64,000 nt of DNA, taken from assembly GCA_026770705.1 (NCBI GenBank), contig JANJGN010000039.1, forward strand, positions 8,246,001 through 8,310,000. Direction: 5' to 3'. Positions within the stretch are counted from its first letter, which is position 1. Every line of letters starts with the position of its first letter. Origin of the DNA: Isurus oxyrinchus (Eukaryota). Below, piece by piece: positions 1 through 45,849 of this stretch. A model generated the notes under the pieces. That model was not told where the DNA came from. It did not search any database and saw only the letters and a list, made by a program, of their open reading frames with translations. A program made the translations under genes and the position numbers.

Positions 1-379
1 ATGCACGTTATAGTTCACCTTAGTTTACTATCACAAAGTAAAAACACAGGGACGTCCTTTCATTATCAAATGACAAAGAAACATTCATAGTTTCGGCATT
101 ATGCAGCACTTTCTTTTCGTGGGAATCATTGGCAAGATTACTATTTTTTTCCGATATCACATATTCTTCTTCTTGCTGTCCATGTGATGCGGGTGCACAA
201 ACAGTGTTTCGAGCGATGTGTTTACAGGAATTTGATTCAGTGGCAGTCAGGGAATGCTGATGTATCTCCAAGTAAGGATATGGTGTGACTTGGAAATGAT
301 TTTGCAATAATAGTATTCCCAGGCCACTTCTGCTCTTGCCGTTCCAGGCCTCCGATGTGAAGTGCTCGAACGGATGCCT

Positions 380-2100
380 TTTGTTCACATCTGTCATATA
401 TCAGGAGCAGCAGCAATCATACCTAACAACACGGCTTTGACCTGGTGAATTGCAAGACAGGACAACTTGCATGCAAAGCAGCGGATGCAGCATGCAATTG
501 ACAGGTCTAATTAATCCCACCAGAAAATAACGTTAACTTAGCTCTGAAGTTCTGCTCATGTCATCTTCAATGTTGTTGGAAAATTCCATGACTCAGTGGT
601 GGCGGACACCACCAATAAACACATCGGCAATGATTGTGGAGCACAGCATATCAGTGCATATACATGGTTGAAGAACTTGCCACCATATTCAGACTGACGT
701 GACTGGTGGATGCATCATCCCGGCCCCCTTCTGTGGATGAGAGCAACACAGAAGCCAGTTTTGAGCCAATGTGGTTCACAACACTTGAGGTGAAGGAATG
801 ACTGAAGGAACTGCATGATGAAGAGACTATGGGTGCTGTCGGATACCAGCAATTGTACGGAAGATTAGTGCTCCTGAATAAACCTTCCTAGAGAACCTGG
901 TATAGTACAGCTAAAACACTGGCATGCACGCGAAAAGGTGAGCAGTTGCATAGCTGGGCCTATCCACAAAAACAAAACAGGTCAAATCCAAACAATCAAA
1001 TTACCACCAAATGTGCCTAATGATCATCATGAACAAAGTGATGGAATGCGTCATGGGCATTGCTTTCAATCGCCACGTACTCGGAAGTAACCTGCTCACT
1101 GGTGACCATTTTTTGCTTCATACGAGCTCCAGCTCTCGGTTTGGCCTTAAACCAAACATGGCCAAAAGTGCTGAATTCATGAGGTGATTGGAGAGCGGCT
1201 CCTGTTTACGTGAAGACAACATTTCACATAATGTTTTGTCAAGGAGATATATCAGGATTGGGGTCAATAAAAATAATGGGGGACCTACACATTGATTGCA
1301 GCCATACGTATCACAAAAGAAGGTTTATGTTTTAAAAACAAAAAACTGTGGATGTTGGAAATACAAAACAAAAACATAATTAGCTGGAAAAACTCAGCGC
1401 ATCTGTCAGCATCGGCGGAGAAGAGAAGAGTTGACGTTTCGAGATTTATATTTTGTTTTGTTTTGAAGGTGAATCAACTCATTCCGATGATATCACTGCA
1501 CGAGATCCTATGGGCAATATCCTGAGTCAAACCAACCTGAGCTTCTTCATTAATTGACTTCTCTGCATCATATTCCCAGAGGAAGGTTTGCGGTGGGGGA
1601 CGGGGGTTGGGGTAGTGTCCGCTGACGATTGTTCAAAGTTCAACAACATTCGCAACTTAAAAGATACTGAAGGCATCTTGCCCGTGTGCATCACGTCCTG
1701 GGCAATATCCAGGCTTCTGATGAAAACTGACAAGTCATGTTAGCACCACACAACTGACAGGCATATACCACCTACAAAAACAGAGTATCCAACCAATTCT
1801 CCTAGACATTTAATGGTATTTCCATCGTTTAATTCCCCATTTTTACATCGATGGAAAAACCATCGTCTCGAAACTGTGAAAGGAACGGCAGGTCGGAAGC
1901 TCACAATTCTGTCACGAGGACATCACCCCCTAAATATCCAAAACCTTCCCTCCATCTACAATGCACAATTCAGGAATGTAATGGAAAACACAACAGTTTT
2001 CTGCATGAGTTCCGCTTCAATAACATTCAACAATATTGACCTAATCCAGGGCAAAGCCGGCTGCTTGATTGGCAACCAGTCCTTAGCTTTAATGATTCAA
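380..2100 (+). mobile_element. Degenerate CR1/Jockey-group LINE ORF2 (RT region) fragment
   Basis: Decayed match to the family that is clearer at 43470-44370 and 50060-51590 (e.g. 'gggcaatatcctgagtcaaaccaacctgagcttcttcatcaattgac' and 'gtccgctgacgattgt', the PQGS/FADD region). Many stops and frameshifts. Confidence 0.7.
1334..1444 (-). mobile_element. Short Penelope-like terminal fragment inserted in copy A only
   Basis: Reverse complement of the 38360-38476 end of the Penelope element. Absent from the paralogous site near 26285. Flanked by tttatgtttt (1324-1333) and tttatatttt (1445-1454). Confidence 0.85.
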
Positions 2101-2404
2101 GCTGTTTATCTTTACCGAATAGTTATTCTTACTGATTTTAAAATCATATCAATCATCAACCAATAACTTAGCAAAATAACTTCATGAAAAATGGCTTTTT
2201 AGTCTTCGCACAATTGCAATCTTGCTTTCCTAAATACCATTTTGCCACGCCCCTCCGTTCAGTGTGCACCATTTTCCAGAGCATTAAGAGCACATGGTAC
2301 TTATGTGAAACCTCCTGGCATTATGTAAAACACGGGCAATAAATATTCGTTTATGTTGACCACCTCCCCTTCCCCTAAGATCATGACTGAATGAGCATCC
2401 ATGG

Positions 2405-2705
2405 ACGAATCATAGAATCACAGAATCATAGTACGGAAGAGTCTCCTTGGCCCAATGAGTCTTCACCGACAAGTGAGAAACACCTGAAATACATACGTAA
2501 TAACATTGACAAGCACTTGGACCATAGCCATGAATGTTACGACAAGCCAAGTGCTTATACAGGCACTTTTTAAAGGATGTGAGGCAACCCGCCTCCAACA
2601 TCCTCCCAGGCAGCGCATTCCAGACAGTCACCTCTCCCTGGGTAAAAATGCTTTTCCTCAAATTCCTCCTAAACCTCTTGCCCCTCACCTTTAACTTATG
2701 CACTC
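2405..2705 (-). mobile_element. CR1 LINE 3' end with short tandem-repeat tail
   Basis: Minus ORF 'HKLKVRGKRFRRNLRKSIFTQGEVTVWNALPGRMLEAG' is the typical CR1 ORF2 C-terminus. Tail repeats 'gaatcata/gaatcaca' at 2406-2430. Paralog at about 27243-27545. Confidence 0.85.
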
Positions 2706-2739
2706 TTGTGGGGCATAAAACACAGTTTTAGGGAGTGGC

Positions 2740-3200
2740 AAGAAACAAAAACTATTGTACACAGAGGACGTCAATGTCTATGACCAAGACAGGATCGGTA
2801 GCACCACTAATGGCCGATCAGCCCGACTCCGACAGATAACTGCTAGACTGGCTCTTTTGCAGGTGATCAGGGAACCAACAAGGTGCAAAGCCCGAAATGA
2901 ACTAGCCTCGCCAACCTTCAAGCAGCATATGCACCTGCCCATTACAGGATTGATAGGATAGAACACCTCACGTTCCTTGTGCAGACTTAGTCGGCCTTCA
3001 TGTTGGAATGTTCTTCCATGGTATAGTGTGACACTACCGTTGTGCGATACGGGTAGATTTCAAGCAGATCAGCAACACCAATGTGGGCATTCACCAGACA
3101 GTTTGGGCCATCAGCTGGAGCAGGGATGTGCACAACCATAATTTGGAATTCCAAGCCCAACCTATCTCCAACTCTTCAATTTCCATGCGGAATTATTATG
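2740..3200 (+). mobile_element. LINE ORF2 endonuclease/linker fragment (CR1/Jockey group)
   Basis: 'GSTTNGRSARLRQITARLALLQVIREPTR' is a decayed version of the segment also seen at 27600-28050, 38480-38940 (minus), 57480-57780 and 59690-60430 (minus). Confidence 0.65.
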
Positions 3201-3954
3201 GTGATGGTTGTGGTGCTGGACAAGAATTCCAATTTCTCCTTTTGGTGTTCGCTGTTGTCACTGTGCGACAGAGAATTCCTTGGATTACTGGGAATTAGCT
3301 GCGATTTTCCAATGTGGTGACATTGACGAGGCTGACTCTCTGCTCTCTGGAGCTTTGCCAAATGAGAATTGATCTCACTGAAACATACACCATTCTTACA
3401 GTGTTCCATGTTATCTATGATGGAGGGATGTTTCGCTGGCGGGTATGTCTAATATCATGAAAAACAATTTCAAAATAACAGATGTGCATTTACTGCAGAT
3501 ATTCCTTCACTTAGAGAGCAGCGAATGTTTGAAATTATCTCCTGCAACAGCGGCAGAGGCTCAGTCATTGGGAATGTTGAAGGCAGTGCGATGAACCAAT
3601 TTCTAAATATTAACTGCGCCCAGAGATATGAGATAGTACAAGGGAATGACATGAAGGCATGATTACAGCCATAATATAGTTCAATAGTGGAGCAAGCGCG
3701 AGCGGCCACCTTTCTAATTTCTGCTCCCATTGCCTATGAATCTATGTCCTTTTGTCACTTAGCAATGCGAGATGCACAAAGAGACAGGGGAGTCCGAAAA
3801 TCGTTTAAAACAACTCAGTTCAATTCTCCCTGTAAATCAGTTGGATTTGGAAGTTTCATCTAGACCAGCAGGTAGTGGAGGGCGATAAACTAAATGGGGC
3901 AGAATAATAAGAACCAGAAACTATTCGGGGTTCGTAGGTGTTTCAAAATCAGAC

Positions 3955-4330
3955 CACTTATGGCTCAGTCAGTTGAAATCTCCGTGCTGAGATAGATGTT
4001 TAACGATTTACTTCCGGCACCAGAAATTCAGAACAAAGTTCTCAGCTCATGGTCCAATCTCTTAGTGAAGTAATTCTGCACTATCGCAAGTAGAACCTTT
4101 AAGAACAGATTCACGATTGACGAGGAAAATGTAGAAGATTCAATTCCAATTATTCGAGGAGCAACATTGTCATAGCCAGTTATGTCCTGACCGATATTTC
4201 TACCTCTGCTAAAATCACCAAATAAAAAATCCGGTCATTGTCAACATGTTGTCAATGAAAGCTTCCTGAGCACAAATCGACGATCACGCTTACTTTAAGT
4301 AAATCCATCAATGTGGTCATGGACAAAGGC
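3955..4330 (+). mobile_element. Deu-domain tRNA-derived SINE (SacSINE1/AmnSINE-like), degenerate; paralog at 28842-29220
   Basis: tRNA-like head 'tggctcagtcagttga', then a Deu-core-like 'tgtcctgaccgatatttctacctc...ccggtcattgtcaacatgttgtc...gcttcctgagcacaaatcg'. Family assignment is from recalled consensus. Confidence 0.55.
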
Positions 4331-4870
4331 TGTTCAATTTCATGTCTATCAATATACAAGTGAGTCAGACATCGGAATGTCTTAAGCGCAGACAACATTG
4401 TGTTTCAGCCAAGCTTACAGATATCATCATTTCACACTGATTTGCAAAACTATCGCTATTAAAAATTAGGGGAATTGAAAGGGAATTTGTTGCTTGTGAT
4501 ATTGGAAAACAGGTGAAAACCGTGAGCAAACACTTTCAATAAGTGCAACCGAATTCTGCAGAATGCGAATTTGCCCCTGCAATGATTTCCATACCTCCAA
4601 TTACCTCCAATTTTAAACACGATCTGAATTGGTTATGACAATTATTGCAGAACCCCACCCAAATTCAAGAAATTCCCCAAAGAATGAAGACGGTCAACAC
4701 TGCAGAAAGCTGCGTGACACATAAAGCAACCTTAAGAAGTCATGTAACGTGAGAACTAACCTTTGATAACTCTCCAACAGAAAACGAAGTATTTCACGGT
4801 ACCAGAAACGCCTTTTGAGTACAAAGTCAATATCCAGTTATACGTCCACTGATTGTATTTAGGCTCTTAC

Positions 4871-4940
4871 CTGGTACACCAACAGCTGCGAGAATAGGGT
4901 AGTAAATGGCCTTTATCTTGTGAATTATCAGGTCTCCCAT
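4871..4940 (-). CDS. First coding exon of GPR139-like orphan class A GPCR gene A (MGDLIIHKIKAIYYPILAAVGVP+G); its main exon would lie left of the window
   Basis: ATG at 4940, 23 codons plus 1 nt, then a strong donor CAG|GTAAGA at 4870. YYPILAAVGVP fits the start of TM1 in this GPCR group. A near-identical exon is at 29762-29831. Too short for the ORF track. Confidence 0.85.
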
Positions 4941-5199
4941 CTTTATGAGAATCTGTCTTTCCTCCTGAGATGGGTAAACAGGATGGAATGGAACGATGTG
5001 AGCTGGAAACTACAAACCCCCGTCACCTGTGAATTAATTTCAGAAACATAAAATAAATAAAGTAAAATCACTGTCGATACTCGGAAGGAGATACCACATT
5101 AATTAAACCCAAAATATCAGGGTAAAACTGGCAGCAAAGCACTTGTAACATGGAAGAGAGATAAGCTGCTATATTTTACAGACATGAAGTCCTGTACAT

Positions 5200-5475
5200 A
5201 AACTTCCAAACCCACTTCCGCTTCTCCCTAGAAAGACAAGAGTAACATAGACTTGGGAACGCCACCATCTAGTAGCTGCTCTTCAAACCACTCACCGCCC
5301 TTATTTGGAAAGATATCGCCGTTTCTTCACTGCTTCTGCGTCAATGTACTGGACCTCCCCGTTATAACACAGACTACAGCAGCTCAAAAATGCATCTCAC
5401 TACCATCTTTTCAAGGGCAATTAGGGAAGGCAATAAATGCTGGCCTCGCCAGCGTCGCCCACATTCAATGAATGC
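5200..5475 (+). mobile_element. LINE 3' tail fragment (same CR1/Jockey-group family); paralog at about 30100-30370
   Basis: The terminal motif 'caagggcaattagggaaggcaataaatgctggcctcgccagcgtcgcccacattcaatgaatg' recurs at about 44350 and 52300. Confidence 0.7.
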
Positions 5476-5604
5476 ATAGAATAAGAGAGATTATTATTTT
5501 TAGCCTGAGAGTATGTAAATAAACATACATTAGACAACGATAACTTCGAGAATGGGTTTGTAAATGTCCCGTATCTGACAAAGTGAAAAAACGCTATTCG
5601 CTGC

Positions 5605-5789
5605 GAGAAGCGCTAATTGAAGCAGAAACACTGAGTCTTTTGGAGAAGATGAAATGATCCGTTCAGAGAAACTCTTATTTATACAACAGATAAATCCCCA
5701 TTAGCTCATTCATGTTCCCTGAAGAAATAAATCAGTTTCAGTCATTGAACAAACAGGTTACGTCAGTCACTCTCCTTGTGAAAGCAACC
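5605..5789 (-). promoter_or_regulatory. Candidate core promoter of gene A (conserved non-coding block with TATA box)
   Basis: 185 bp ungapped with 6 mismatches against 30500-30684, far more conserved than the flanks. TATAAATA on the minus strand at 5683-5676, a TTACGTCA CRE-like site, and TAAT homeodomain cores. Confidence 0.6.
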
Positions 5790-6879
5790 GCTACAAAGTG
5801 AAACATCAAATTTTGTACTGATGTCTGTGGTCAAACCAATTGAAGGGGCTGCATGATAGCGATCAATGGATAAATATTATCGGAGGTGGTCAGAGCGGAA
5901 AATGATTAAACCACCAGGGGTTATTGCGGGATAAATCGTCACTAATTTATATTAAAATGAATCTTAGCAACACAATGGTTCTGATCCTCCCTAAGTAGGG
6001 GGCACATTTCTGATGTTCCCCACTGTTTTGTGTTTCTGGATCCATTCTATGTTCCAACAAGGCACGTGTGTGATCCTTGTCTTAGACATTCAAGCTCCCA
6101 GAGGGAAGACATACGCTGCCCAGATCGTTCCTGGATTACGCTGGCACTGATTCCTCTGTCGGTGACTGGGCCTACATTCTATGGCGTTGCCCAGAAATTT
6201 GCACCATTCCGCCTGCAAATTAAAAATGCGACCAGAGGACATGGAGGGATCGTACTGGTGATTCCGTGAGGTGTAACACGATCTGTATGGAGAAGGCATT
6301 TGTTTTCTCAACCAGAAAATTTCAATATAATGCGTTCCAGACGTTTCCAAACCTATAAATGGTCAATAACCATCCTACCCCCGACAGCAAATCAATCTAT
6401 TCCACCCACTCACATATTACATCCAGAGAGATGTTTGGGCTGATTGAAAAACAATGTTTTGAATAAAATAATAGGTTAATTCGATTACAAAGCTGGGCGA
6501 ATATTCCAAGCTAAACATTTAACTCCTGACCCTCAGATGTCTTCTGCCGACGATCATTGGCCGATGGAATCATTCATTATAATGAAGCAGAACCTCCGGC
6601 TGTTGGTTTGCGCTGCATTTCATACAACATCAAACTCACAAGAATTAAGGGCAGGGGTAGCTCATTCGCCCTCTTGAGTCTCTTCTGCAACTCGAAAAGA
6701 AAATGGTTTTACCTGATCGTGGCCTCAGCTCCATTTTCCTGCCTGCACTTCTCCAACCTGCGTCACACACCCGGCCCTCCACACCCTCCACAAAACACAC
6801 ACATCCGTCCTCATGACCTCAATATCCTTTATTGGTCAATGAACTATCCAAACCAGTCTGGAATATGATGCTGCCCTCA

Positions 6880-7930: not shown

Positions 7931-7984
7931 CAGGCGCGGATAAAGCTGCACAGGGTAATGGAAAAAATATAAATATAAATCCAG

Positions 7985-15699: not shown

Positions 15700-16090
15700 C
15701 ATCTGTGGTTGGTTAGTCATTTGCGAATAAATGTCACTTTGACGTCTGTGATGTCTCTTCGTTTTCCCTTCCTTATCTCTGTAATTTCCTCCTCCCCCCC
15801 TAAGACACCATGATAACTGTGGTAGTCTATTTCTGGCTGCATTATCCTCTGCGAATATAATGTTTCCAACATTACTGAACTTGCCTTCAGTTGCCTAGAG
15901 TTCATGCTCTGGAATCCCCGCCACGCACAGCCCCAACCACCCGCCCCCCCCCCGCCAACCCCCTCACCCCCACCCCCAGCGCGGCTCCAAATCTCTGCCT
16001 CCCTTTTCTGCTTCAAGATAATTCTTAAGACCGACCCGTTTGACTATCCCTTTGATCAGTTGTCATGTTCTGTTATGTGGAGCTGATCTG
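15700..16090 (+). mobile_element. L2 LINE 3' fragment with C-rich insert
   Basis: 'gccttcagttgcctagagttcatgctctggaatccc...cttcaagataattcttaagaccgacccgtttgac' resembles AFS...P.LWNSLP...FK..LKT.LF of L2. Confidence 0.55.
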
Positions 16091-19725: not shown

Positions 19726-19763
19726 TTTATTATTATCATCATGCCTCAAGTCCACCATTTATT
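19726..19763 (-). promoter_or_regulatory. Candidate polyadenylation signals of GPCR gene B
   Basis: AATAAA on the minus strand at 19763-19758 and 19731-19726, about 155-190 nt after the stop codon. An AATAAA sits at the homologous place in copy C (about 42056). Confidence 0.4.
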
Positions 19764-19918: not shown

Positions 19919-20823
19919 TCAATTGGTTTTCAGCTGTAATTTGACTAATTTTACGCACCGTTTCAAAGAGTATTGCATTCCGTTCCTCAGCTCCTCCCTA
20001 AACCTAGACTGTGTCAGCACATAAATGAATGTATTTGTGCAGCAGCTGAGGAGCCCAAGCATGATTGCAACTGACCCAAGTTCATTAGTGCCAGAATATG
20101 AAATGATTGTTGTATGCAGAGAGAAAACATATGCGACTGGAGTTGTCCAAAGCAATATAAAGCTGCCGGTTATACTGAAGAGTAAAATTATGGACTTTCT
20201 TCGTCTTTCTATCTCTGGATCATTGTGATGCTCTCCATTGCAGCAACCGCGGAGACCCCTGCGAACTCTACTGGCAGCTAAAATACGTCTCACCATCAAA
20301 ACATTTAGCAACAAAATTAAAATGAATGGAACAAGTGGGGTCAAAGTTAGCACAAAGAAATCAAATGCAGCCCATTCAGCAGAACTGAAAAATGTCTGTT
20401 TTAGTTTGCAACCGCGAGGTACATTGCCAATTATATATGCAGGTTCATAAGCAAAATACCAGGGAATGTTTGTCAAACAACTCAAAACACTCACTACTGA
20501 TATGACAGCTACACCTGTTTTCTCTGTGCAATATTTTTTTCTCAGTTCCAGACAACATATCGCCACAAAACGATCGAAGGTGAACACCAATGTCAACCAG
20601 ACGGAGGCTGAAGTGACTACATAAATCAATGTCTCCATTAGATGGCATACCGTGCTCATGGTCAAGAATGAATCCGGAAAATAAATATTCAGCATTTCCT
20701 TCAGTATGACTTCAGTACAAATAAACAGGAGATCAGCCGCTGCCATCGCAATCATATAACATGTAATGCATTTGGAGAGACCACACTTTCTTCTGGAAAG
20801 GATGACAATCGCAACAACATTAC
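19919..20823 (-). CDS. Main coding exon (TM1-TM7) of GPR139-like orphan rhodopsin-class GPCR gene B; with exon 29831-29762 gives a 324-aa receptor
   Basis: Open frame with GN (TM1), MAAADLL (TM2), FTFDRFVAIC (TM3), PW (TM4), an ECL2 Cys, TP.VPF (TM5), SFILLW (TM6), SCCTNTFIY (TM7) and FREEL (helix 8). Acceptor 'ctccttctctctcttcctcacttacag|G' at 20824; phase 1 matches the upstream exon. Similarity to GPR139/GPR142-like receptors is from recall, not a search. Confidence 0.92.
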
Positions 20824-20999
20824 CTGTAAGTGAGGAAGAGAGAGAAGGAGATAGACGACACAGATGAACAAGGCAACTTCTCTTGCAGTTACAGCAAAGG
20901 CTCATGCATTTCACCCAAACATGCAGGACCTGCTTCCCGAGATGAGCATATACTAAATGTGGATTGGACTTAGTAAATGTGGACAGGGAAATGATCATT

Positions 21000-26600: not shown

Positions 26601-29600
26601 GACCACCTACGAAAAAAAAGTGTCCAACAATTTCTCATAGATATTTAATGGTATCACCATCGTTTAATTCTCCATTTTGAAGATCCACGGAAAAACCATT
26701 GACTAGAAACTGTGACTAGAAGCGCAAGTCAGGACTGGGAATTCTGTGGCGAGGACATACCCGCCTGACTCTGCAAAACCTTCACTCCATCTATAATGCA
26801 CAATTCAGGAATCTACTGGAATAAACAACAGTTTTCTGGATGAGTTCTGCTTCAATAACATTCAACAATATTGAACTAATCCACGACAAATCAGGCTGCT
26901 TGTTTGACAACTAATGCTTAGCTTTAATGATTCAAGCCGTTTATCTCTAGCGAATAGCTATTCTTACTGATTTTAAAGTTCATTTAAACCATCAACCAAC
27001 ACCTGAGGAAAATAACTTCATCGAAAACGGGAATTTTGGCTTCGCCCAATTCCATTGTTGCTTTCCTAAATATCATTTGGCCACGCCTCTCCATTCAGTG
27101 AGCACCATTTTTCAGAGCGCTAAGAGCACGGGAAACTTATATTCAACCTCATGGCACTTTGTAAAACACGGGCACTGAATATTCCCTTATGTTGACCACC
27201 TCCCGTTCCCCTCAGATGATGAATGAATGAGCATCCATGGACGAATCATAGAATCACAGAATCACAGTGCACAAGAGGCACTTCAGCCCTTCGAGTCTGT
27301 ACTGGCATGTGCAAAACACCTGTCCTGACTACTTAATTACATTTACCAGAAATTGACACATAGCCTTGAAGGTATTGATGTGCCAAGTGCTCATCCAGTT
27401 ACTTTTTAAAGGATGTGAGACAATCTGTCTCTACCACCCTGCCAGGCAGCGCATTAGAGACATTCAACAAACTCAGGGGAAAAAAGTTTTTCCTCCAATC
27501 CCACCTAAAACACCTGCACCTCACGCTTAACTTATGCACTCTTGTGGGGCATAAAACGAAGTTTTGGTGAGTGGCAAGAAACAAAAACTATTGTATGCAG
27601 GTGCTGTCATCGTCTATGACCAAGACAGGTTCGGTAGCACCACTAGTGGCCGATCAGACCGAGTCAGACATATAACCGCTGGATTGGGTCTTTGGAAGGT
27701 GATCAGGGAAACAACAAGGTGCAAAGACCGAAATGAACACGCCTCACCAAACGTCAAGCAACATATGCACCTGCCCATTACAGGAATGATAGGATAGGCC
27801 ACCACATGCTCCTTGTGCAGACATAGTCGGCCCTCACATTGGAAAGTTCCTCCATCGTATAATGTGACACCACCTTTGTGCGATATGGGGTAGTTTTCAA
27901 TCTGATCAGCAACATAAAAGTGGGCATTCATCAGGCAATTTGTGCCATATGCTAGACCAGGGATGTGCACAACCAGAGTTTGCAATTCCAAACCCAATCT
28001 ATCTCCAACTCCTCAATTTTCATGTGGCATTATTATGGTGATGGTTGTGGTGCAGGACAAGCATTCCAAATTCTCCTTTTGGCGTGAGTTTTTGCGCTGT
28101 TGTTATAGCTGTGCTACAATGATTGTTAACAAGATAATTCCTTGAATTACTGGGAATTAGCTGGGATATTCCAATGTGGTGACATTGACGAGACTGACCC
28201 TATGCTTTCTGGAGCTTTGCCAAATGAGAAATGATCTCACTGAATCATAGACCGTTCTTACAGGGTTCGATGTTACAGATGTTGGAGGGATGTGCCCCTG
28301 GCTGATGTGTCTAATATCATGAGAGACAGTATCAGAATAACAGGTGTGCATTTAGGGCAGACATGAGGGGGAATTTCTTCACTCAGAGAGCAGCGAATGT
28401 TTGAAACTATCTCTCCCAACAGCGGCAGAGGCTCAGTCATTGGGAATGTTGAAGGCAGCGCGATGAACCATTTTCTAAATGTTAAATGCATCCAGAGATA
28501 TGCGATAGTGCAAGGAAATGAATTGAATGCATCTTTACAGCTATGATATAATTGAGTAGTTGAACAAGCTCAAGCGGCCAAATTGTTAACTTCTGCTCCC
28601 ACTGCCTCTGCCTCTATGCTCTTTTGTCAGAACCTGCATGTCACTTAGCAATGCGAGATTCAAAAAGAGACAGGGGAGTCCGAAAATGCTTTAATCCAAC
28701 TAATTTCAATCCTCAATACAAATCAAATAAACTTGCAAGTTTTTTTTACATCAGCAGGTAGTGCAGGGCGAGAAATTGAATGGAGCAGAATATTCAGAAC
28801 CAAATTACTACTTGGGGTGTGTAGTTGTTTCAAAATCAGGCCACTTATGGCTCAGTCAGTTGAAATCTCCGTGCTGAGATAGATGTTTAACGATTTGCTT
28901 CCGGCGCCAGGACTTCAGAACAAAGTTCTCGGCTAATGTTCCAATGTCTTAGTAAATTAATTCTGCACTTCCACAAGCAGAACCTTTAAGAAAAGATGTC
29001 AAATTGATTCACGAGGAAAACGTAAAAAGATTCAATTCCACTTTTTCGAGGAGCAACATTGTTGTAGTCCCCTGTGTCCTGAACGAAATTTATACCTCAG
29101 CTAAAATCCACAAAATAATACAATCCGGTCATTGTTAACATTATGTCTATGGAAGCTTAAAGAGCACAAATCACGCTTACTTTAAGTAATTCCATCAACG
29201 TGGTCGTGAACAAAGGCTGTTGAAAATCATTTGTATCAACATACAAGTGAGTAAGACTTCGGAATGTCTTAATCACACACAGCATTGTGATTCAGCCAAG
29301 TTTCCAGATTTCGTAACTTCACACTGATTTGTAAAAATATCGCTGTTAAAAAGTACGTGATTTGACAGGGATTCTGTTGCTTGCGATATTGGAAAACAGG
29401 GGAAAACCGTGAGCAAACACTTTCAATTAGTTCAAGCTGAATTCTGCAGAATGCGAATTTGCCCTTGCATTGATTTTCATAGATACGTTTTATCTCCAAT
29501 TTTAAAGACGGTCTGCACTTGGTCATGACAATTATTGCAGAACGCACCCAAATTCAAGAAATTCCCCAAAGAATAAATACGGTGTCAACACTCTAGAACG

Positions 29601-29761
29601 ATGCATGAAAGATGAAGCAATAGTAAGAAATCAGTTAACATGACACCTAAACTTTGATAACTCTCCAACAGAAAAGGAACGGTTTCACGTTACCAGCAAC
29701 ACCATTTGAGAAGAAAGTCAATATTCACTTATACGTCCACTGATTGTGTTTAGGCTCTTAC

Positions 29762-29831
29762 CAGGTACACCAACAGCTGCGAGAATCGGGTAGTAAATGG
29801 CTTCTATCTTGAGAAGTATAGGTTCTGCCAT
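29762..29831 (-). CDS. First coding exon of GPR139-like GPCR gene B (MAEPILLKIEAIYYPILAAVGVP+G)
   Basis: ATG at 29831, 70 nt, donor CTG|GTAAGA at 29761. The leftover G joins GT at 20823 to give Gly in 'VGVP-G-NVVAIVIL', which completes TM1. Confidence 0.88.
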
Positions 29832-30499
29832 TTTTATGAGAAGATGTCTTTCCTCCTGAGATGGGTAAAAAAGGATGGAATGGAACGATGTGAGCTGGAA
29901 CTTACAAACATACCCTTCTCCTTTGAATTAATATCAGAAACTTAAAATAAACAATGTAAAATCACTGTCGAGACTCGGAAGGAGATACCACATTAATTAA
30001 CCCCAGAATATAAGGGGAAAACTCTCACCAAAGCATTCGTAACAGGGAAGAGAGAAAACCTGCTACATTTTACAGACATGAAGCCCTGTACATAAACATC
30101 CAAACCCACGTCCGCTACCACCTAGAAAGACAAAGGTAACATAGACATGAGAACGCCACCACCAGTAGCTCCTCTCCAAACCCCTCACCGTCCGGATTTG
30201 GAAGTATATCGCCGTTCCTTCACTGCCTCTGTGTCAAAGTACTGGACCTCCACCTTATAACACAGACTACAGCAGCTCAAAAACGCATCTCACTACCATC
30301 TTTTCAAGGACAAATAGGGATGGACAATAAATGCTGGCCTCGCCAGTTTCGCCCACATTCAATGAATGGATAGAATAAGAGAAATTCCTATTGTTAGCCT
30401 GAGTTTGTGAAAATAAACGTACATTAGACAACGAGAACTTCGACAATTGGTTTGTAAGTGTCCCGTATCTGACAAATTGCAATAAAGGCTATTTGCTGT

Positions 30500-30684
30500 G
30501 AGAAGCGCTAATTGAAGCAGAATCACTGAGTCTTTCGGAGAACATGAAATGATCCGTTCAGAGAAACTCTTATTTATACAACAGTTAAATCCCCATTAGC
30601 TCATTCATGTTCCCTGAAGAAATAAATCAATTTCAGTCATTGAACAAACAGGTTACGTCAGTCTCTCTCCTTGTGAAAGCAACC
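30500..30684 (-). promoter_or_regulatory. Candidate core promoter of gene B
   Basis: 179 of 185 positions identical to 5605-5789. Minus-strand TATAAATA at 30578-30571. Confidence 0.6.
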
Positions 30685-31789
30685 ACTTCAAAGTCAAACG
30701 TCCAATATTGGACTGATGTCTGTGGTCAAACCAGTGGAAGGGGCTGCATGTTTTGATCAACGGGTAAATATTATCGGAGGTGGTCAGGGCAGGAAAAGAT
30801 TAAACCACAAGTCGCTGTTGCGGGGAAAATCATCACTAATTTACATCAAAATGAAGCTTAGCAACTCAATGTTCCTGATCCTCCAGACCTAATGGAGAAA
30901 TTTCAGATGTTCCCCATTGTTTTGAGTTTCTGGTCTCATTCTATGTTCCAACAAGGCACTGTGTGATCCTTGTCATTGACTTTCAAGCTCCCAGATGGAA
31001 GACATACGCTGCACTGATCGTTCCATGGATTACGCTGGCACTGACAACTCCATCGGTTACTAGGCCTACAATCCATGGCGTTGCATTGAAATTTGCGCCA
31101 TTCCACCTGGAAGTTATAAATACACGCGGAGGACGTGGAGGGTTTGTCTTGGTTAATTACGTGATGCGTAACACAAGCTGTATGGAGAAGGAGTTTCTTT
31201 TCTCAACCAGAATACTTCAAAATAAAGTGTTCAAGATGATTCCGATCCCATAAATGCTCAATATCCATTCCTGCAGCAGCCAATCATCCTACAGCACCCA
31301 CTCACATACTCCATCCAGAGAGATGTTTGGGCTGATTGAAAAACGATTTTTTCTATAAAATTGTATGATAACTAGAGTACAATGCTGGGAGAATATTCCA
31401 CGTTGAACATTGAACCCTTGGCCCTCAAATGTCTTCTGCCGACTGTCATTGTCCTATTGAGTCACTCATTATAATGAACCCGAATTGTCGTCGCCTCCAG
31501 CTGTTGGTTTGGGCTGCATTTCATACATGGCCAACATCACAAGAATTAAGGGCAGGAGTAGGGCATTCGCCCTCTCGAGTCTGTGCTGCAGCTCTGAAAG
31601 AAAATGGTTTTACCTGATCGTGGCCTCAGCTCCATTTTCCTGCCTGCACTCCTCCAACCAGTGTCACACACCCTACCCCTCCATTGCACCCTGAAAACAC
31701 ACACATACATCCTCATGACCCCAATATCCATTATTCGTCAATAAGCTATCCAAATCACTCTTGAATATGAGGCCTCCCTGAAAAGTTGA

Positions 31790-36288: not shown

Positions 36289-38476
36289 AATCTCCTCTGG
36301 GGATCTCCCTCCAACAGCTTCCAACCTGATAGTCGCCCAACCTCGGATGGCCCGCTTCAATCTCCTACCCTAAATCCACAAACAGAACTGCCCAGGTAGA
36401 CCGATCGTCTCAGCTTGCTCCTGCCCCACAGAACTCATATCTCGTTATCATGACTCCCTTCTCCCTCACCTTGTCCAGTCCCTTCCCACCTATATCCGTG
36501 ATTCCTCTGACACCTTACGTGACATCAACAATTTCCAGTTCCCTGGCTCCAACCGCTTCCTCTTCACCATGGACATCCAATCCCTCTACACCTCCATCCC
36601 CCACCAGGATGGTCTGAGGGCTCTTAGCTTCTTCCTCGAACAGAGGCCCGAACAATCCCCATCCACCATTACTCTCCTCCGTCTGGCTGAACTTGTTCTC
36701 ACGCTGAACAATTTCTCCTTCAACTCCTCCCACTTCCTGCAAATAAAAGGTGTGGCTATGGGTACCCGCATGGGCCCCAGCTATGCCTGTCTCTTTATGG
36801 GGTATGTGGAACATTCCTTGTTCCAGTCCTACTCCGGCCCCCTTCCACAACTCTTTTTCCGGTACATCGATGATTACTTCGGTGCCGCTTCATGTTCTCG
36901 TCGGGACTTGGAAAAATTTATTAATTTTGCTTCCAATCTCCACCCCTCCATCATTTTCACGTCGTCCATCTCTTTCACTTCCCTTCCCTTCCTTGAGCTC
37001 TCTGTCTCAATCTCTGGTGATAGACTGTCCACCAATATCCATCACAAACCCACCGACCCCACAGCTATCTCGACTACAGCTCCTCACACCCAGCTTCCTG
37101 TAAGGACTCCATCCCATTCTCCCAGTTCCTTCGCCTCCGTCGCATCTGTTCCGATGATGCTACCTTCAAAAACAGTTCATCTGACATGTCCTCCTTCTTC
37201 CTTAACCGAGGTTTTCCACCCACGGTCGTTGACAGGGCCCTCAACCGTGTCCAGCCCATCTCCCGCACATCTGCACTCACGCCTTCTCCTCCCTCCCAGA
37301 AACATGATAGGGTCCCCCTTGTCCTCACTTATCAACCCACCAGCCTCCGCATTCAAAGAATCATCCTCCGCCATTTCCGCCAACTCCAGCATGATGACAC
37401 CGCCAAACACATCTTCCCTTCACCCCCCTTTCGGCATTCCGTAGGGATCGCTCCCTCCGGGACACCCTGTTCCACTCCTCCATCACCCCCTACTCCTCAA
37501 CCCCCTCCTATGGCACCACCACTTGCCCACGCAGAAGATGCAACACCTGCCCCTTCACTTCCTCTCTTCTCACTGTCCAAGGTCCCAAACCCTCCTTTCA
37601 AGTGAAGCAGCATTTCACTTGCATTTCCCCCAACTTAGTCTACTGCATTCGTTGCTCCCAATGTGGTCTCCTCTACATTGGAGAGACCAAACGTAAACTG
37701 GGCGACCGCTTTGCAGAACACTTGCGGTCTTTCCACAAGAATGACCCAAACCTCCCTGTCGCTTGCCATTTTAACACTCCACCCTGCTCTCTTGCCCACA
37801 TGTCTCTCCTTGGCTTGCTGCATTGTTCCAGTGAAGCCCAACACAAACTGGAGGAAAAACACCTCATCTTCTGACTTTACTACCATCCGGACTGAATATT
37901 GAATTCAACAACTTTAGGTCGTGAGCTCCCTCCCCCATCCCCACCCCCTTTCTGTTTCCCCCTTCCTTTTCTTTTTTTTTCCAATAAATTATATAGATTT
38001 TCCTTTTCCCCGCTGTTTCCATTATGAAAAGAATATATATTTTTTTACATCTTTTATGCTCTCCCCACCCCAACTAGAGCTATACCTTGAGTGCCCTACC
38101 ATCCATTCTTAATTAGCACATTCGTTTAGATAATATCACCATCTTTAACTTTAACACCTATGTGTTCTTTTGTACTATTGTTGTTGACATCTTTTGATGA
38201 TCTGCTTCTATCACTGCTTGTTTGTCCATACAACCACACTCCCACTCCACCTCTCTCTCTCTCTCTCTCTCTCCGCCCCCCACAGACACACCTTAAACCA
38301 ACTTATATTTCAACTCTTTCTTGGACTCGAACTCAAGTTCTGTCAAAGGGTCATGAGGACTCAAAACGTCAACTCTTTTCTTCTCCGCCGATGCTGCCAG
38401 ACCTGCTGAGTTTTTCCAGGTAATTCTGCTTTTGTTTTTGTTTTGGATTCCCAGCATCCGCAGTTTTTCTGTTTTT
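36289..38476 (+). mobile_element. Penelope-like retroelement (RT + GIY-YIG endonuclease), 5'-truncated and disabled
   Basis: LP*IHK...PGRPIVS, MDIQSLYTSIP, QIKGVAMGTRMGPSYA and FRYIDD (PLE-type RT), then NLVYCIRCSQCGLLYIGETKR..DRFAEH (GIY-YIG). In-frame stop at about 36371, frameshifts near 37058 and 37430, TGA at 37872. The 3' region has (CT)n and a hammerhead motif. Confidence 0.93.
38336..38374 (+). ncRNA. Minimal type I hammerhead ribozyme motif (mutated) in the Penelope terminus
   Basis: AGTT-CTGTCAA-A-GGGTC-ATGAG-GACTC-AAAA-CG-TC-AACT: stem I AGTT/AACT, stem II GGGTC/GACTC, with degenerate CUGANGA and GAAA cores. The copy at 1429-1443 keeps GAAA. Confidence 0.65.
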
Positions 38477-41395
38477 ATATTGAAGTAGAATGCTTGACTG
38501 GCATCAGAAACATCACCATAAACAGTCCAGATGAAAATTGCAGATTTGGGGATAGACTGGTCTTGGGGTTACAAATTATGGTTCTGCACCAATCAGCTGC
38601 AGCTAATGGTCCACAATGCCTCGTGAATGCCCACTTTTGATTTGTTAATCAAGGTGAAACCTACCCCATTTAGGACAATGGTTGTCTCAACACAATACGA
38701 TGGAGAGAAGCCCCAATGTGAAGGCGGAATTCATCTGTACAAGGACGTGCAGTGGTCTATCCTATCAATTCTTAAATGGACAGCTGCACCTGTGGTGGTT
38801 AGGTTTGTGGAGCGAATTCACTTAGAGGTTTGCACCTGATTGGTTCCCTGACCACCTCCCAAAGACCTAATCTAGCATTTATCTTTATGACTCTGCCAGC
38901 TCGGACATTATTGATGCTATTGATCCGCTCTTGCTCACAGACTTCAAGGTCTCCGATGGAAAGCATTTTTTCTTCTCTCTCCCTAAAACTTCGGCCATTG
39001 ATGATCATTGATTCATCTGCTGAGGTGAACGGGAGCTGGTCAGCAGAAGGGGACATTCATTGCCCATGTGTTGCGTGATGTCATGAGATGTCACTTAAGT
39101 GCCACGTGTACTGAAGGATATGAAAAATGGTGCACGCTGGAAGTGTTGCAAAATGGTATTTAGGAAAGCAGTAATAGAATTGAGCGTACCGACTAATTCG
39201 GTGGATATATTACGTTTTGGATAAGATAATTTCACTCAGATGTTTGCTCATGATTCGTATGAACTTTCAAAGCAGGAAGATGAATTATTCAGTTAAGGGT
39301 AAACAGCTTGAATCATTAAATTTATGGAATGATTACAAATCAAGCAATCAGCTTTGTCCTGGGTAAAGTCAATATCCTTGAATTCTACTGGAGCATACAT
39401 CATCTAGACAGTTGTAGCGTATCTCATCACATTCCTGATTTGTGCATTTTAGATGGAGGTAAGTTTTTGGAGAGTCAGGGGATGTGTTGCTCACCACAAC
39501 ATTTTCAGATTCTGAGCTGCCCTTCGAGTCACAGATTCCAGTCAATGGTTTGTCCAAGGATGTTGAAAACGGGGGCTTAAGCGATGGTAATGCCAGTAAA
39601 TGTCAAGGCTAATTTGTTGGATGTTCATTTGGTGCAGATGGACATTTCTTGTCAATTTTGCGGGGCGAATATTACTGATCATTCTTCAGCACAGGTCTGG
39701 CTGTTGCCCAGGACTTGATGCACATGGGCACAGATTTCATCAGCATCTGTTGAGTCGTGAATGGTGTGGAACTTTTAACAATTCTCAGCGGATATAACCT
39801 CCCCCCACTTTCCCACACCCCCCCCCCCCACCCCACCACACCAGCGTCCTACTGTGTTTCAAATGGAGAGAGCATAATTGATTCAGAAGCTAAAGATGGG
39901 TGGGCTCAGGACACTGCCCTCAGTCTGTCGTCCAGTTATGTCATGGTGCTGAGATGATGCACCTGCAAAAGAAAATAAAAATGAAAAAATAAATTATTTT
40001 TGCTTTGTATGAGTTCACTCAGTAGGGAAGTTTCCCCTTACTCTTATTGACCACAATTCTTATAACCCTCCTTGATACCACATTGTGATAACTGATGCAT
40101 TGATATAGTTCACATCCACTCTCCCCTCATCTTATAAGTACGGCACCTGTGTCCATGTTTGGAGGCAGTCCGAACCAGGAGTTCAGCTCGCACGAAGCAA
40201 AAAGTGAGGGTCAGTGAACAGTTTACTGCCGAGTATTTGGCGATGGAAAGCATTTTCTATGATACTTTTCATCACATTGATCTTGATTAAATGTAGGCTG
40301 ATGGGGCTGTACTTAGATTGGTTGGATTTGTCGTGATTATTTGTGGATAGGCATACCTGTGAAAATTCTCAAAGTTTCGCATAGTTGCCAAAGGTTTAGA
40401 TGCACCATACCAGCATCGATAGGAAGGCTGATTCAGGAGCAGTGATCTCCCGTACTATTGGCATTATCTAAATGGACCCATAACCTCTTCATCATCCAGT
40501 TCCTTCAGTCATTCCTGAAATCCGAGTGCTGAGAATCACATTGTATGAAGACTGGCATCTGTGATGCTTGTCATCCATAGGTGGAGGCCGGATGGTTCAT
40601 CTACCCGTCACTTCAGGGTGAATGTGGCTGCAAATTCTTCTGCCATGTATATGCACTGGTGTGCTGCGCTCCACAGTCATTGCTGATGGGGATATTGCTG
40701 GAGAGCAAGTGAGGTGCAGAATTTTACACCACCATTAAAGGTGACTGTGACAGGACTTCAGAGCTGAGCTATCGTTATTTGGTAGGGGGACCAATGAGCC
40801 CTGTCTTTCTCATGCTGAATACGCTTTTTTGCTTGCAAGTAGCCCCGGGCTTGAAATTCACCAGGTTAAGCCGTGTTGTTAGCTTTAATTGCTGCTGTAT
40901 TGGACATGGGGCAGGTGTCAGCAACGTTCCTTCGTTTGTGCATTTGACCTCAAAATCGTGGAAGGGAAACAGCAGAAGAGTGATGGGAACACTCTTAATT
41001 ACAAAATCCTTTCTGAGTCACGCATCAAGCTGACTTGCAGATACATCAACGTTCATTTACTGTCACTGGATCAAAAACCTGGAAATCAATCGCTCCCAGC
41101 AAATAATGCTAAGAGTCATGGGTTTTACGAGTCTGGCCAATTTGTAGTGAATTAAGCTGTAGAGGATATTAATTTAAACATCGGTGTATTAGGAGTTAGA
41201 TCTTTATCGTCAGGTAATTGGCAATTCGTAATTTTACTTTCCTGAACACAGATTAGTCTACAGACTCAAATCTTTTTGCCCAACATGGACAACCTTTTCT
41301 CGCAATTTTATGCACTTGGTACCCAGAAAAAAAATCAATTTTAAGCTTCACCTTCAAATCACAGATGTTGTCATTGAGACACAAGCGATTGTGTC

Positions 41396-41881
41396 CTAAA
41401 ACATACATTTTTCATTTCTGCTGAGTGGGCCGCACTTGAATTTATTACCCTTACCTTGACCCCATTTGTTCCATTCATTCTAATCTTGTTGCTAAATGTT
41501 TTGACAGCTAGGCGTATTTTGGCAGCCAGTAAAGTTCGCAGGGGTCTCCATAGTTGCAGTAATGGAGAACATCACAAGGACTCTGAAATAAAAAGCCGAA
41601 GAAAGTCCATTATTTTACTCTTCAGTATTACCGGCAGCTATATATTGCTCTGGACAACACCTGTTATATATATTATCTCTCTGCATGTAACAATCACGTC
41701 AAATTCTGAGGCAAATGAGCTTAGGTCAGTTGGATTCATGCTAGGGGACCTCAGTTGCTGCACAAATGCATTCATTTATGCGCTGACGCAGGCTAGGTTT
41801 AGGGAGGAGCTGAAGAGTGGAATGCAGTACCTTGTGAAACTGAGCGCAAAACTATGCAAATTACAGTGGATAACCCATTGA
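41396..41881 (+). pseudogene. GPR139-like GPCR pseudogene C (end of ECL2 through TM5-TM7 and C-tail only)
   Basis: LKHTFFISAEWAALEFITLTLTPFVPF...SCCTNAFIY...FREEL aligns ungapped to gene B (about 73% aa identity by manual count). The splice acceptor and TM1-TM4 are lost through a ~1.6-kb deletion. No first exon was found on the plus strand. Confidence 0.88.
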
Positions 41882-43469
41882 CCTGTACAGGCGGACATAA
41901 ACATTATGCCCTCATAACTCATGTTAGAATAACGCTTGTAACAACGTTTAATATCCTACTAAAAAAGGTTTCCTACTTAACATGCTCTGTTATAATATAG
42001 TGAACTATTATTCACAGTATACAGTAATCAGTGGTGAATTGTAAGTTGTGATAATAATAAAAAATAAGAATAATAATAATACTGAACAGCTCCTGTTAGC
42101 GTTGCAGAGTTTGAAAAAATGAATTGTGATGCCAGGTTTTGACAGCCTTGTGTTCATTGGAACAGTTGTTCTGATCAGCAAGAGAAGACCCAAACATCAC
42201 CAGCTGGATCATGACAACTCGACAAATGTAACATAGACAAACTTGGCAAATTTCCTACGACGTCTATTCTGGGGCAATTAGTACATAGGGGGATTTTTCA
42301 GAACATGTTTCACGAAGTCTGGCACCTTTCAAATATCGAACAGTTGCGCAATGAGCTGCTTCTCAGATTTCCATTTTCCGCACATGATTAAAACAAGGAA
42401 GGCCTGGTCATCACGTGTTTTGTGAAAGGAGGGGCAGTGGCGCATCTGATCACTCATTACCATGATTTATCGGACTGCGAGTCGACTCCATATATTGGAT
42501 TCTGTACATTTAAATCCGATTTCCCTCCGATTCATTTGAATACGCAAATGGCTCATACTTGTTTTTTCACGATTAATGAGGCTACTTCCTCTCCACATGC
42601 TCATTCACGACACTCTCTGTTTCATGTTATCCGGTCCTTTCACATACGCACAGCCACCAAATGGCTGTTATCATAATTCTCGAATATTTTCATATGTATG
42701 ACTTGAAATCCACTCATCAATGTAGCGAGTGATGCTTCAGCCAGGTATCTGCACAAATTCCCAGCCAAGAAACGTCTGATCACACATGGCCCTACCATTA
42801 ATTTCCTTTCCAGTATACCTACGCATATTGAATGCGAAAAATTGTAATGTAATTCTTCTCGTCGCATATTCTTATCATTTACTTAACTTAAAAGCCGTTC
42901 GTAGAATGCAACCATAGAAGGTCTACAGCACAGAAGCAGAGCATTTGGCCCCTCCTTTCCTTATTGTCTCACTTAAGGAAGATGCAGCCGGCAGTCACTC
43001 CGCCGGCTTCTCCCTGTTATGTGGGTGATTCGCTTTTCTCAGATATTAATCCAAAATTGTCTTGACGATTCCTAATTAACCACCCTAATCACCCGGGAAA
43101 ATGATTGTCCAGAACAACTGCCAATTAACGTTGCATTAAATAGAAAACTAGAACCGCTTTCCTTGAACAAATGAACATTAAAAACACGACAAGTTCGGTC
43201 ATGGCATGAGGGGCATAGTTGGCAAGAAAAACAATTATTGTCAATCTTTAACTGTTCTTACAGAAAAGCATACGTGATCCGTCTTTTCCAGCAGCTACAG
43301 TGTTTCTGATATCTTCACACTGGCTGCTTAGGGCCTGAATTACTAAATGCTCACACCGCCGGCTCAGCTACCACTCTTTTCTAAATGTTAGCTCTGGCTT
43401 TTCGCCATGTACACTTTCTAAATGTACATCTCGATTGCTCAGCTCCTAGTCCTTTTAGTTCCTGAGAGA

Positions 43470-44370
43470 ACATCAGTTCCTCAGGGTAATGTCCAAGGCT
43501 CAACGATGTTTAGCTCCATCATCAATGACCTTCTCTCCATCTTAAGGTCGGAATTGGGGATGTTCGCTGATGATTACACAATGCTCAACACAATTCGTGA
43601 CTCCTGAAATCATGAGGTTGTCCATGGCCAAATGCAGCATGTTCAGACTTTGGCTGAGGAGTGGCAAAGGACATTGACACCATACAAGTACCAGGCAATG
43701 TATATCTCCAAAGAGAAAATCAAACGATCGACAGCCAACATTCAATGGCATTACCATCGCTGAAAGTCGCACTATCAGCATTGTAATGCTTATCATTGAC
43801 CAGAAACAGAACTGGATTGGCCATATAAACAGAACCTCCACAATTGCGGTTCAGAGGCATGGAATCCTGCGGCGACTCCCCAATTCCATTCCACCATCTA
43901 CAAGTCAGACGATAGTACTGTGATGATATACTCCCCACTTGCTTGGGTGTGTGCAACTCCAAAACAGGCAAGAAGCACGACAGCATCTGGGACAAATCAG
44001 TCGTAGATTGACACCACATCAATAAACGATGACTCCCTCCACAACCGACGAAAAATAGCAGCAGTGTGTACTATCTGAAAGGTGCCACTGCCTGAATTTC
44101 CGAAGTCACCTTTGACATTACAGTCCAAACCCACGACCGGAGCATCTAGAAGAATAATGGGCAGCAGATTCATGGGAGCACAACGATTTGGATGTTCCCC
44201 TCCAAGCTACTCACCAGTCTGTTTGAGAAGATATCCCTGTTCCATCATTGTAATTGTGTCAAATTCCAGGAACTCCCTCCCTAAGAGCACTATGGCTGCG
44301 ATTCAAGAAGGGAGCTCACCACCATATTCTGAAGGGTACCTACGTCTGGGCAATAAATGCTGTGCGAGTG
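43470..44370 (+). mobile_element. LINE RT core to 3' tail (CR1/Jockey group)
   Basis: 'SVPQGNVQGSTMFSSIINDLLSILRSELGMFADDYTM' has the RT motifs PQG and FADD. Confidence 0.85.
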
Positions 44371-44889
44371 ATTGACGCCAAAACCCCCTTAATCAATAAT
44401 AATAAATTATCATTGTCTCCGTGGCTGCACAGCTACTGCGCTTCCTGTTTCTCCAGTCTGACAGCTCTCTTCTACTATAGTAAAATCAATGTCCTAGACA
44501 ATGCATCCTGCTTCTTATAAAACTATGCTCTACCTTTTTAGCTTCCTTACTTTTATTAACTTCTGCTTTGGGAGAAGAGTGTCTTTTACTTTCCTATCTG
44601 TGTTTTGATTATCTAGCTCCAATTATTTTTAAATCTATTTTGGGGGGGTGGGGCAGTCACTTTCTAATCCTTGCTTTGAATACCTCGCTGTCGCTCTTTT
44701 TAAAACTCTCCTCTGGCAGCTCAGCTACCGCTCTTTTACCTTTCTGCCCTGGCAACTCATCTACTTCTCTTTTAAAAAAATGTCACCTGTTCGTGATCAG
44801 CTCCCCACTCTCTCTAAATCACTGCTCTGCCTGTTCAACTGCCGCATTAAACGAATAATTTAACCTGCCCTGACTGCCAAGAGTCTAGC

Positions 44890-45520
44890 CAGCAATTGGA
44901 GACGGTTGAGTTTAATTAAGAATGGTCATTGGTTTGTAACACCATGACTTAAAATAAGAATATGCTTGTATAACCTACTAGCATTTTGATATCACAACAG
45001 AGAAAATTAATGAATTAATACATGGCAAAGTGGATTTTGAGATATTAATTGACAACTAATCGCAGATAAGGCTGCTTAAGAACATTTACGCTCATTAAAA
45101 AGGACAGAGGCGCGGATTGTGGGAGGGGGAGGAGTCGCTTTCCAATTGCATCAATTGTGGTAATGCACAGAAAACAGAAACTATTTATTATCGTTTTCAT
45201 TTAGTCTGGATGATGGTAGCCGGTGGCATTCCCCAGGAATCCGGGTTTGTTTTATTTTTGGTCGACATAGACCAGTTGAATCTTGGATTACAGCACAGCG
45301 TCTCAAAAAGGGTTAGTGATGGAGACATGGTGGGAGTTTACCAGTGAGGATGATACGAATCGGAAATCGAGAGACGAGCAGAATATGCAAGGGATTAGCA
45401 GATGCAATTTATTGTATTGCTATGTAAAATAATACAATTTGGCAGAAGGGGTAATGAAGGGAAATAGAGATGGACTGTCACTGTCCTAAAGAATGTGATA
45501 GAATGGAGGGACCAAGGTGC
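44890..45520 (+). mobile_element. Old CR1 RT fragment
   Basis: 'WMMVAGGIPQESGFVLFLVDIDQL', followed by a 'QMQF..C.I.HFGR'-like segment. Confidence 0.7.
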
Positions 45521-45849
45521 ATGTGCTTCGATTTTAGAGTATGGCAGACAGAGCCGTGCCTCAGGTATGGAAAATTGTGGCGACCGGGCCTGGCACCGCA
45601 CATTGAGGGCGGATGTGGACTGCGCTGCGGTGACCTGTGAATGCGGGCGACAATTCCTACCTGGGTAAGTTTGAAGGTGACTGTTTAAGTGACACAAATG
45701 TGCCGGCCTATTCGTATTTAGGATTCAATGGCTAGCAAAAGCAGAGACAAAGGAAATGGGGACAATATTGCTTGGAAGCAAAGAAAAGACAGAGAAAATA
45801 ACGAGAGAATGATAAGACCTTGAAATGTTCTCTGGAAAATATCTGACAT

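Follow-up and report, generated by a model that had tools for sequence, protein, structure and literature searches.

A large, still-duplicating family of class A receptor genes in the shark Isurus oxyrinchus, distinct from GPR139 and GPR142, as a candidate chemosensory repertoire

We analysed a 64,000-nucleotide stretch of contig JANJGN010000039.1 from Isurus oxyrinchus (positions 8,246,001 to 8,310,000; hereafter the window, whose own numbering is used below), which carries two genes and one relic of an expanded family of class A G-protein-coupled receptors (GPCRs). The initial annotation had described three related units here, namely tandem genes A and B, which share a tiny first coding exon, and an inverted pseudogene C, and comparison of the window with itself recovered all three, with a first coding exon of 70 nt in both genes. 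Gene B is an intact two-exon class A GPCR gene on the minus strand. Its coding exon 1 (29762..29831, 70 nt) ends at a GT donor in phase 1 and splices across an 8.9-kb phase-1 GT..AG intron (20824..29761) to the AG acceptor of coding exon 2 (19919..20823, 905 nt), which runs from the second half of transmembrane helix 1 (TM1) to the C-terminus and a TGA stop; two candidate poly(A) signals (19731..19763, minus strand) lie ~160-190 nt below this stop. Spliced together, the two exons form an open frame of 324 amino acids (aa), in which a Pfam search found 7tm_1 (E 2e-23) and no other family. The seven-helix region had been assigned to a single large exon; exon 2 is indeed large, and TM1 proves to be divided between the two exons.

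Gene A lies on the same strand, with a coding exon 1 (4871..4940, 70 nt, 23 codons plus 1 nt, GT donor), an intron that fills 1..4870 and runs on to the left of the window, and an exon 2, 82% identical to that of gene B, located ~4.4 kb left of the window (from G000:C39:8241608). Its 325-aa frame is open, but DCF replaces DRF and the conserved arginine R3.50 is gone; because DRF is kept in 10 of 10 sister A-type copies, the sequence indicates that the copy in the window is likely impaired in function. Over the kilobase upstream of exon 1 the two genes share 88-94% identity, compared to ~83% (71-88%) across the intron and at more distant upstream positions. This shared segment (4941..5860 in gene A and 29832..30750 in gene B, minus strand) had been called a conserved promoter. 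The conservation stands, whereas the promoter function, like that of a 5' untranslated region in gene A, is predicted from sequence, including a TATA-like motif 743 nt (gene A) or 747 nt (gene B) above the ATG. A T-rich tract ending in AG ~105 nt above the ATG of gene A, and in AAAG in gene B (window positions ~5040 and ~29940), hints that a non-coding first exon lies close to the TATA-like motif of each gene.

Unit C (38483..45835, plus strand) is an inverted partial duplicate, homologous to genes A and B, that comprises an intron remnant, the 3' half of exon 2, and downstream DNA. Its coding remnant (41387..41881, plus strand) corresponds to residues 161-324, is 72% identical to gene B, and is open over 164 codons. 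As only these residues are kept and exon 1 was not found by tblastn or blastn, unit C is a truncated, 5'-less relic, in keeping with the pseudogene originally proposed. Its remnant is stop-free in six of six copies seen (window, L134, L136, L137, L140, and L141) despite the missing 5' half, possibly by chance at 1-3% divergence. At the left edge of unit C lies a broken Penelope-like retroelement (36290..38478, plus strand) with reverse transcriptase and GIY-YIG-like frames (RVT_1 and weak GIY-YIG matches); a 92% identical copy sits to the left of gene A, just downstream of it, and 1.2 kb of the element is missing from two sister blocks. A 4.1-kb segment (window 12660-16782) is 78% identical to a stretch ~32 kb leftward, as part of the A-B tandem duplication, and kilobase-scale tandem arrays of short units occur among decayed family members in both flanks of the window (L031-L040).

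Duplication at this locus is recent and involves more than single genes. Contigs C39, C56, and C153 carry ten B-type copies that are mutually 98.0-99.1% identical over 3.3-3.9 kb, five of them on one contig, and an A-type gene lies 17-36 kb from the B-type copy in nine of the ten cases. In each of five sister sites fetched, the 20 kb from the gene B intron to unit C matches the window at 97-99%, with both gene B exon 1 and the unit C relic present. The duplication unit is thus a block of tens of kilobases, and whole ~50-kb blocks get copied. The 164 kb around the window hold eight exon-2-type loci, and the five besides A, B, and C are all broken. On a large contig, a same-strand tandem array at G000:C21:83.0-85.0 Mb holds dozens of copies that belong to one divergent subfamily (L076-L080 type).

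Genome-wide, the family has at least two thousand copies, and about half of those sampled are unbroken. Exact degenerate searches found 2,070 matches to a TM3 motif (0 in the control) and 2,491 to a TM7 motif (3 in the control), an exon-1-plus-donor motif matched 1,495 times (79 in the control), and in a protein search each of the 130 candidates scored, from 7,632, was at least 57% identical. The TM3 and TM7 motifs occurred together at 30 of 100 TM3 matches in the range listed for both, which scales up to rough figures of ~3,900 loci for their union and ~8,300 by capture-recapture. Of 40 TM3 loci chosen by hand among the first 100 in the list, 23 had an open exon 2 (by a length rule), as did 10 of 20 loci from a 27-match rare-codon subset, or 33 of 60 over both TM3 samples (~45% broken); these counts concern exon 2 only, exons having been paired just at individually examined loci. 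Scaling up 33/60 suggests ~1,100 open exons from the TM3 set alone, in agreement with ~1,400 exon-1 matches above the control. Open sequences from this genome are diverse (32 of 40 are less than 90% identical to each other, median 47%), and many subfamilies at 34-86% identity retain open frames. The initial annotation had envisaged a clustered, duplicating, pseudogenising, lineage-expanded family of orphan class A receptors and had set a mere handful of paralogs as the refuting result; clustered birth-and-death evolution with many pseudogenes is what we found, and the count exceeds a handful by three orders of magnitude.

These numbers could mostly be an assembly artefact caused by uncollapsed haplotypes, since some pairs are 99.1% identical and most loci lie on contigs numbered 41 or higher (21 of the 27 in the rare-codon subset), which are small where lengths were seen. 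Two haplotypes are nevertheless insufficient to generate ten B-type copies that are roughly equidistant and include five on one contig. Diverged members are also abundant, and the same pattern appears in other species, making an artefactual count highly improbable. In databases, 2,204 clusters matched at E<=1e-10; the best 120 came without exception from elasmobranchs, spanning 12 shark and ray genera, with the closest of them in lamniform sharks at 73-75% identity, and most carried the automatic name 'probable G-protein coupled receptor 139'. Cysteine C3.25 was present in 83 of 85 other-species sequences and a cysteine in extracellular loop 2 (ECL2) in 85 of 85. Neighbours of the family in the Atlas include FMRFamide-receptor-like clusters and clusters that carry Srw (PF10324).

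The genes had also been described as GPR139-like; that they are copies of GPR139 is not supported. A short GPR139 motif matched the genome at GPR139 (L121, C15) and at GPR142 (L122, C22), once each, in addition to one family member, and the true GPR139 and GPR142, located elsewhere in the genome, are only 24% and 21% identical to the family (about 21-25%). In a search of the PDB, GPR139 was a weak match (E 2e-10) that ranked below the prolactin-releasing peptide receptor. A search of cluster representatives with a profile of GPR139 plus GPR142, in which ten matches were looked up by name, returned amphioxus, bichir, hagfish, and lamprey genes as well as several without a name, and led to two conserved single-copy non-mammalian subtypes, T1 and T2. 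The genome itself has three single loci related to the family, L124 on C9, L130 on C6, and L131 on C21; L124 is 28% identical to gene B. When 54 sequences selected by hand were placed in a maximum-likelihood tree under LG+F+G4 (277 columns, abbreviated search; the set took in a minority of 150 representatives and no olfactory receptor (OR) or TAAR sequences), the expanded family was monophyletic (100/100) on a stem of length 1.17 and nested with L124, L130, and L131 at 100/100, together with single-copy GPR139-like genes of fish and tetrapods. Amphioxus genes were sister to all four (99/100), and GPR139 and GPR142 fell outside the clade. The same nesting was recovered by FastTree with 83 sequences. 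A sister relationship of the family to T1 is moderately supported (87.7/95) and open to long-branch effects. The name 'probable GPR139' is therefore misleading for the family, and the label spans at least four lineages besides the true gene.

The family has the features of class A (7tm_1, seven helices, N1.50, D2.50, D/E-R-Y/F, N7.49, and Y7.53, with gene A lacking R3.50), and with Pfam 7tm_1 alone and GPR139-like genes as nearest kin in this tree it shows no membership of the OR, TAAR, V1R, V2R, or T2R families. An AG acceptor occupies the family's intron position in the true GPR139 and GPR142 and in the single-locus relatives as well, and exon 1 of L130 fits the family exon-1 pattern; the two-exon layout is thus ancestral and no hallmark of chemoreceptors. 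Three non-mammalian sets of such genes, GPR210A, GPR210B, and one unnamed, have been described in fish and coelacanth, in a paper that never mentions sharks (PMC6504862). L124, L130, and L131 probably correspond to these three sets, a match we infer from relationships rather than accessions, and the family probably arose from one paralog of this GPR210-like group, possibly as the last of four. A ratio of four lineages in vertebrates to one in amphioxus would be consistent with two rounds of genome duplication. L124 (G000:C9:126713209-126714039, T1) has one in-frame TGA in ECL2, which may reflect lineage loss or a sequence error; the gene is full-length in catshark and other sharks. L131 (G000:C21:15048059-15048973), sister to T2, is a fast-evolving single-locus GPR139-like gene with a branch length of 1.0 and an open 333-aa frame.

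Kinship with the GPR139/GPR142 branch raises the question of whether the family resembles GPR139 in responding, in brain, gut, or gonad, to endogenous signals, be they aromatic amino acids or neuropeptides. Activation of GPR139 by Trp and Phe needs four residues, F3x33, H5x43, W6x48, and N7x38 (PMC5430874). At these positions gene B has Y/V/W/I and by alignment-based numbering keeps only one or two of the four, so that aromatic amino acid sensing by the family finds no support. The largest subfamily often retains Y3.33, H5x43, and W6.48 (18, 18, and 27 of 32 members), as would be expected of endogenous receptors, but N7x38 is not among the four commonest residues at its site across the 32 and R6.51 is not kept either. 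Moreover, the true GPR139 and GPR142 are present and single, and receptors for endogenous ligands are usually stable single genes, as in nematodes (PMC2576165). We consider an endogenous role quite improbable.

The cytoplasmic face of the receptors is conserved and the outer face is variable. An AlphaFold model of relative P0015, built from a 58-sequence alignment (mean confidence, pLDDT, 82.8), shows seven transmembrane helices and helix 8, folds ECL2 into a hairpin, and predicts that TM1 starts at residue 5, in accord with the very short extracellular N-terminus noted at the outset. A fold search singled out no receptor (GPR15, NTSR1, SSTR2, CCK1R, and GPR139 all had TM-scores of ~0.7). Entropy was 2.14 bits at 29 pocket positions versus 0.48 at 24 G-protein-side positions, both lists following class A numbering, and 1.86 versus 0.92 in the outer and inner halves of the helices (P 7e-14). 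The ratio of nonsynonymous to synonymous substitution rates (dN/dS) was 0.42 when pooled, lay at 0.35-0.55 in every one of 12 diverged pairs, and was as low as 0.12 on the G-protein side; within the B/A clade it ranged from 0.38 to 0.85, mostly higher in the outer half, and the fastest sites lie in the extracellular loops (ECL1, ECL2, and ECL3) and at the outer ends of TM6 and TM7. A test for diversifying selection on the pocket did not detect it, with a dN/dS of 0.61 (0.44-0.81) compared to 0.58 for the rest. A dN/dS well below 1, the strongly constrained G-protein side, and a pocket equal to the rest indicate purifying selection with a free outer face.

Might neutral segmental duplication within repeat-rich arrays have swollen a modest functional core, with the majority of copies redundant or dying and family size having no adaptive meaning? 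Copying of whole blocks at 97-99% along with the dead unit C, the broken state of ~45% of loci picked by TM3 and ~70% of those picked by TM7, and the absence of a raised pocket dN/dS would all be expected. Neutral inflation does not explain, however, why open frames are kept in many diverged subfamilies, why all 12 diverged pairs show constraint, or why the expansion is seen in 12 genera among the best 120 relatives, and we regard it as improbable.

We give roughly even chances to the reading that the family is a combinatorial repertoire for sensing outside chemicals in sensory epithelia. A combinatorial sensor would be expected to combine a shared cytoplasmic face with hundreds of different outer faces: in a large, still-duplicating, short-N-terminus class A family of elasmobranchs, all members would signal through one G-protein output while each preferred its own ligands. 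The ligands are likely peptide-type or small polar molecules, judging from the cysteine pair that joins TM3 to ECL2, the hairpin in ECL2, and the FMRFamide/srw-like kinship, and expression might be expected in sensory cells of the nose, taste organs, or skin by analogy with other birth-and-death GPCR families. Nematode srw receptors offer a precedent: they expanded in chemoreceptor fashion out of neuropeptide receptors and are proposed to detect peptides in the environment (PMC2576165). Cartilaginous fishes, moreover, have few known olfactory receptor genes (20-62; PMC10869828) even though their olfactory organs are well developed (PMC10116579). The bolder version, in which sharks and rays own a seventh vertebrate chemoreceptor family, a thousand-gene repertoire derived from a GPR139-related paralog and hidden as 'probable GPR139', strikes us as possible, at somewhat less than an even chance.

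Several results weigh against a sensory repertoire of this size. Only six of 20 TM7-picked loci have an open exon 2 (one frameshift-like, one with an in-frame deletion), the intactness samples were hand-picked rather than random, many copies are near-identical recent duplicates (98-99%), and the concentration of the rare-codon subset on contigs numbered 41 or higher means that haplotype duplicates possibly inflate the counts up to ~twofold. Choosing the majority of sampled loci through their TM3 motif itself produces part of the conservation on the G-protein side. The pocket shows no diversifying selection, dN/dS within A-type genes is 0.72, and gene A has lost R3.50. A motif scan, a weak test, found no strict O/E site above genes A or B. 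In addition, the catshark nose is reportedly dominated by V2Rs, with all neurons positive for Go and TRPC2 (PMC10116579), and shark ORs are themselves expressed in tissues other than the nose (PMC11979771), so that the tissue cannot be read from the type of family. The catshark description, in which v2r1 occurs at a moderate frequency of 5.94 cells per mm (PMC10116579), leaves room for a further receptor class without demonstrating one. Contigs from sequencing runs presumed to be RNA, a status that was guessed and that allows for DNA carry-over at this depth, are not used as evidence, and no RNA run was listed as carrying exon 2 of gene B. At 80% likeness they covered exon 2 of gene B faintly in three of four runs with no exon joint, and otherwise fell only on intron repeats; at another family locus, L057, 29, 33, and 12 contigs of three runs (two samples) lay on the coding exon and none on the outer flanks, and run X1 had 1,358 contigs on a 1.3-kb stretch of L057, although it may not be independent of the assembly.

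Mammalian FPR and MRGPR expansions have roles in detecting microbial or damage peptides, and the shark family could analogously be a non-neuronal or somatosensory surveillance repertoire in leukocytes, barrier epithelia, or sensory ganglia. Birth and death and a variable outer face are equally expected of such a system, and the fold is equally near peptide and chemokine receptors. Cartilaginous fishes are reported to lack MAS1-related receptors (PMC8455134), and catshark or1 and or4 are spleen-specific (PMC11979771). The largest OR repertoire comprises 2,399 genes (PMC10869828). A thousand or more shark genes, on the other hand, far exceed the sizes of FPR and MRGPR families, and only olfactory families are known to reach that scale. 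We judge surveillance unlikely, though the next most probable reading after the sensing of outside chemicals.

Whatever its function, roughly a thousand intact-looking genes in one genome, with relatives in sharks and rays, are at odds with the relative paucity of GPCRs reported for cartilaginous fishes (PMC8455134). These animals have the smallest vertebrate olfactory repertoire, at 20-62 receptor genes with a mean of 43.8 (PMC10869828), and that smallness is now directly testable with existing olfactory RNA-seq. A sensory role would mean an independent origin of a mammal-scale chemoreceptor repertoire, an immune or somatosensory role would mean a receptor system of unusual size, and a true seventh chemoreceptor family would overturn the view that sharks and rays are GPCR-poor and smell with only ~40 receptors. 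Our literature search, which did not extend to most subscription papers or the supplement of PMC11979771, found no account of the expansion, and a search on the srw-type analogy found no description of it. 'GPR' has 0 matches in PMC11979771, term look-ups in PMC10620051 and PMC12294341 likewise gave nothing, and 'receptor 139' is absent from the supplements of PMC11057056 and PMC13188829. The genes are already in databases under a misleading name; the expansion itself is real and surprising.

Comparison with known systems places the family as follows. With GPR139 and GPR142 it shares the wider branch, the intron position, a short N-terminus, and the lack of P7.50, and GPR139 is the source of the automatic name, but it differs in its conserved C3.25 and cysteine of ECL2, in the absence of P6.50, R6.51, and N7x38, and in occupying thousands of loci rather than single ones. 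Its nearest relatives, the non-mammalian GPR139-like genes, have the same exon layout and the same amphioxus sister; they are single loci here, with two subtypes conserved across bony vertebrates, whereas the family is long-stemmed and massively expanded. Tandem clusters, birth and death, many pseudogenes, a short N-terminus, a variable outer face, and a dN/dS of about 0.4-0.55 are shared with the OR, TAAR, V1R, V2R, and T2R families of vertebrates. Unlike those families, to which our tests revealed no homology within class A (Pfam 7tm_1 only), the shark genes have a coding intron and peptide-receptor-like neighbours in the tree. Nematode srw genes are likewise a fast-turnover expansion from neuropeptide-receptor-like GPCRs, and Atlas neighbours of the shark family carry PF10324, although the srw expansion arose independently in another phylum and gene B itself has no PF10324 match. 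The family is a newly recognised form of birth-and-death receptor repertoire, for which a chemosensory role is plausible.

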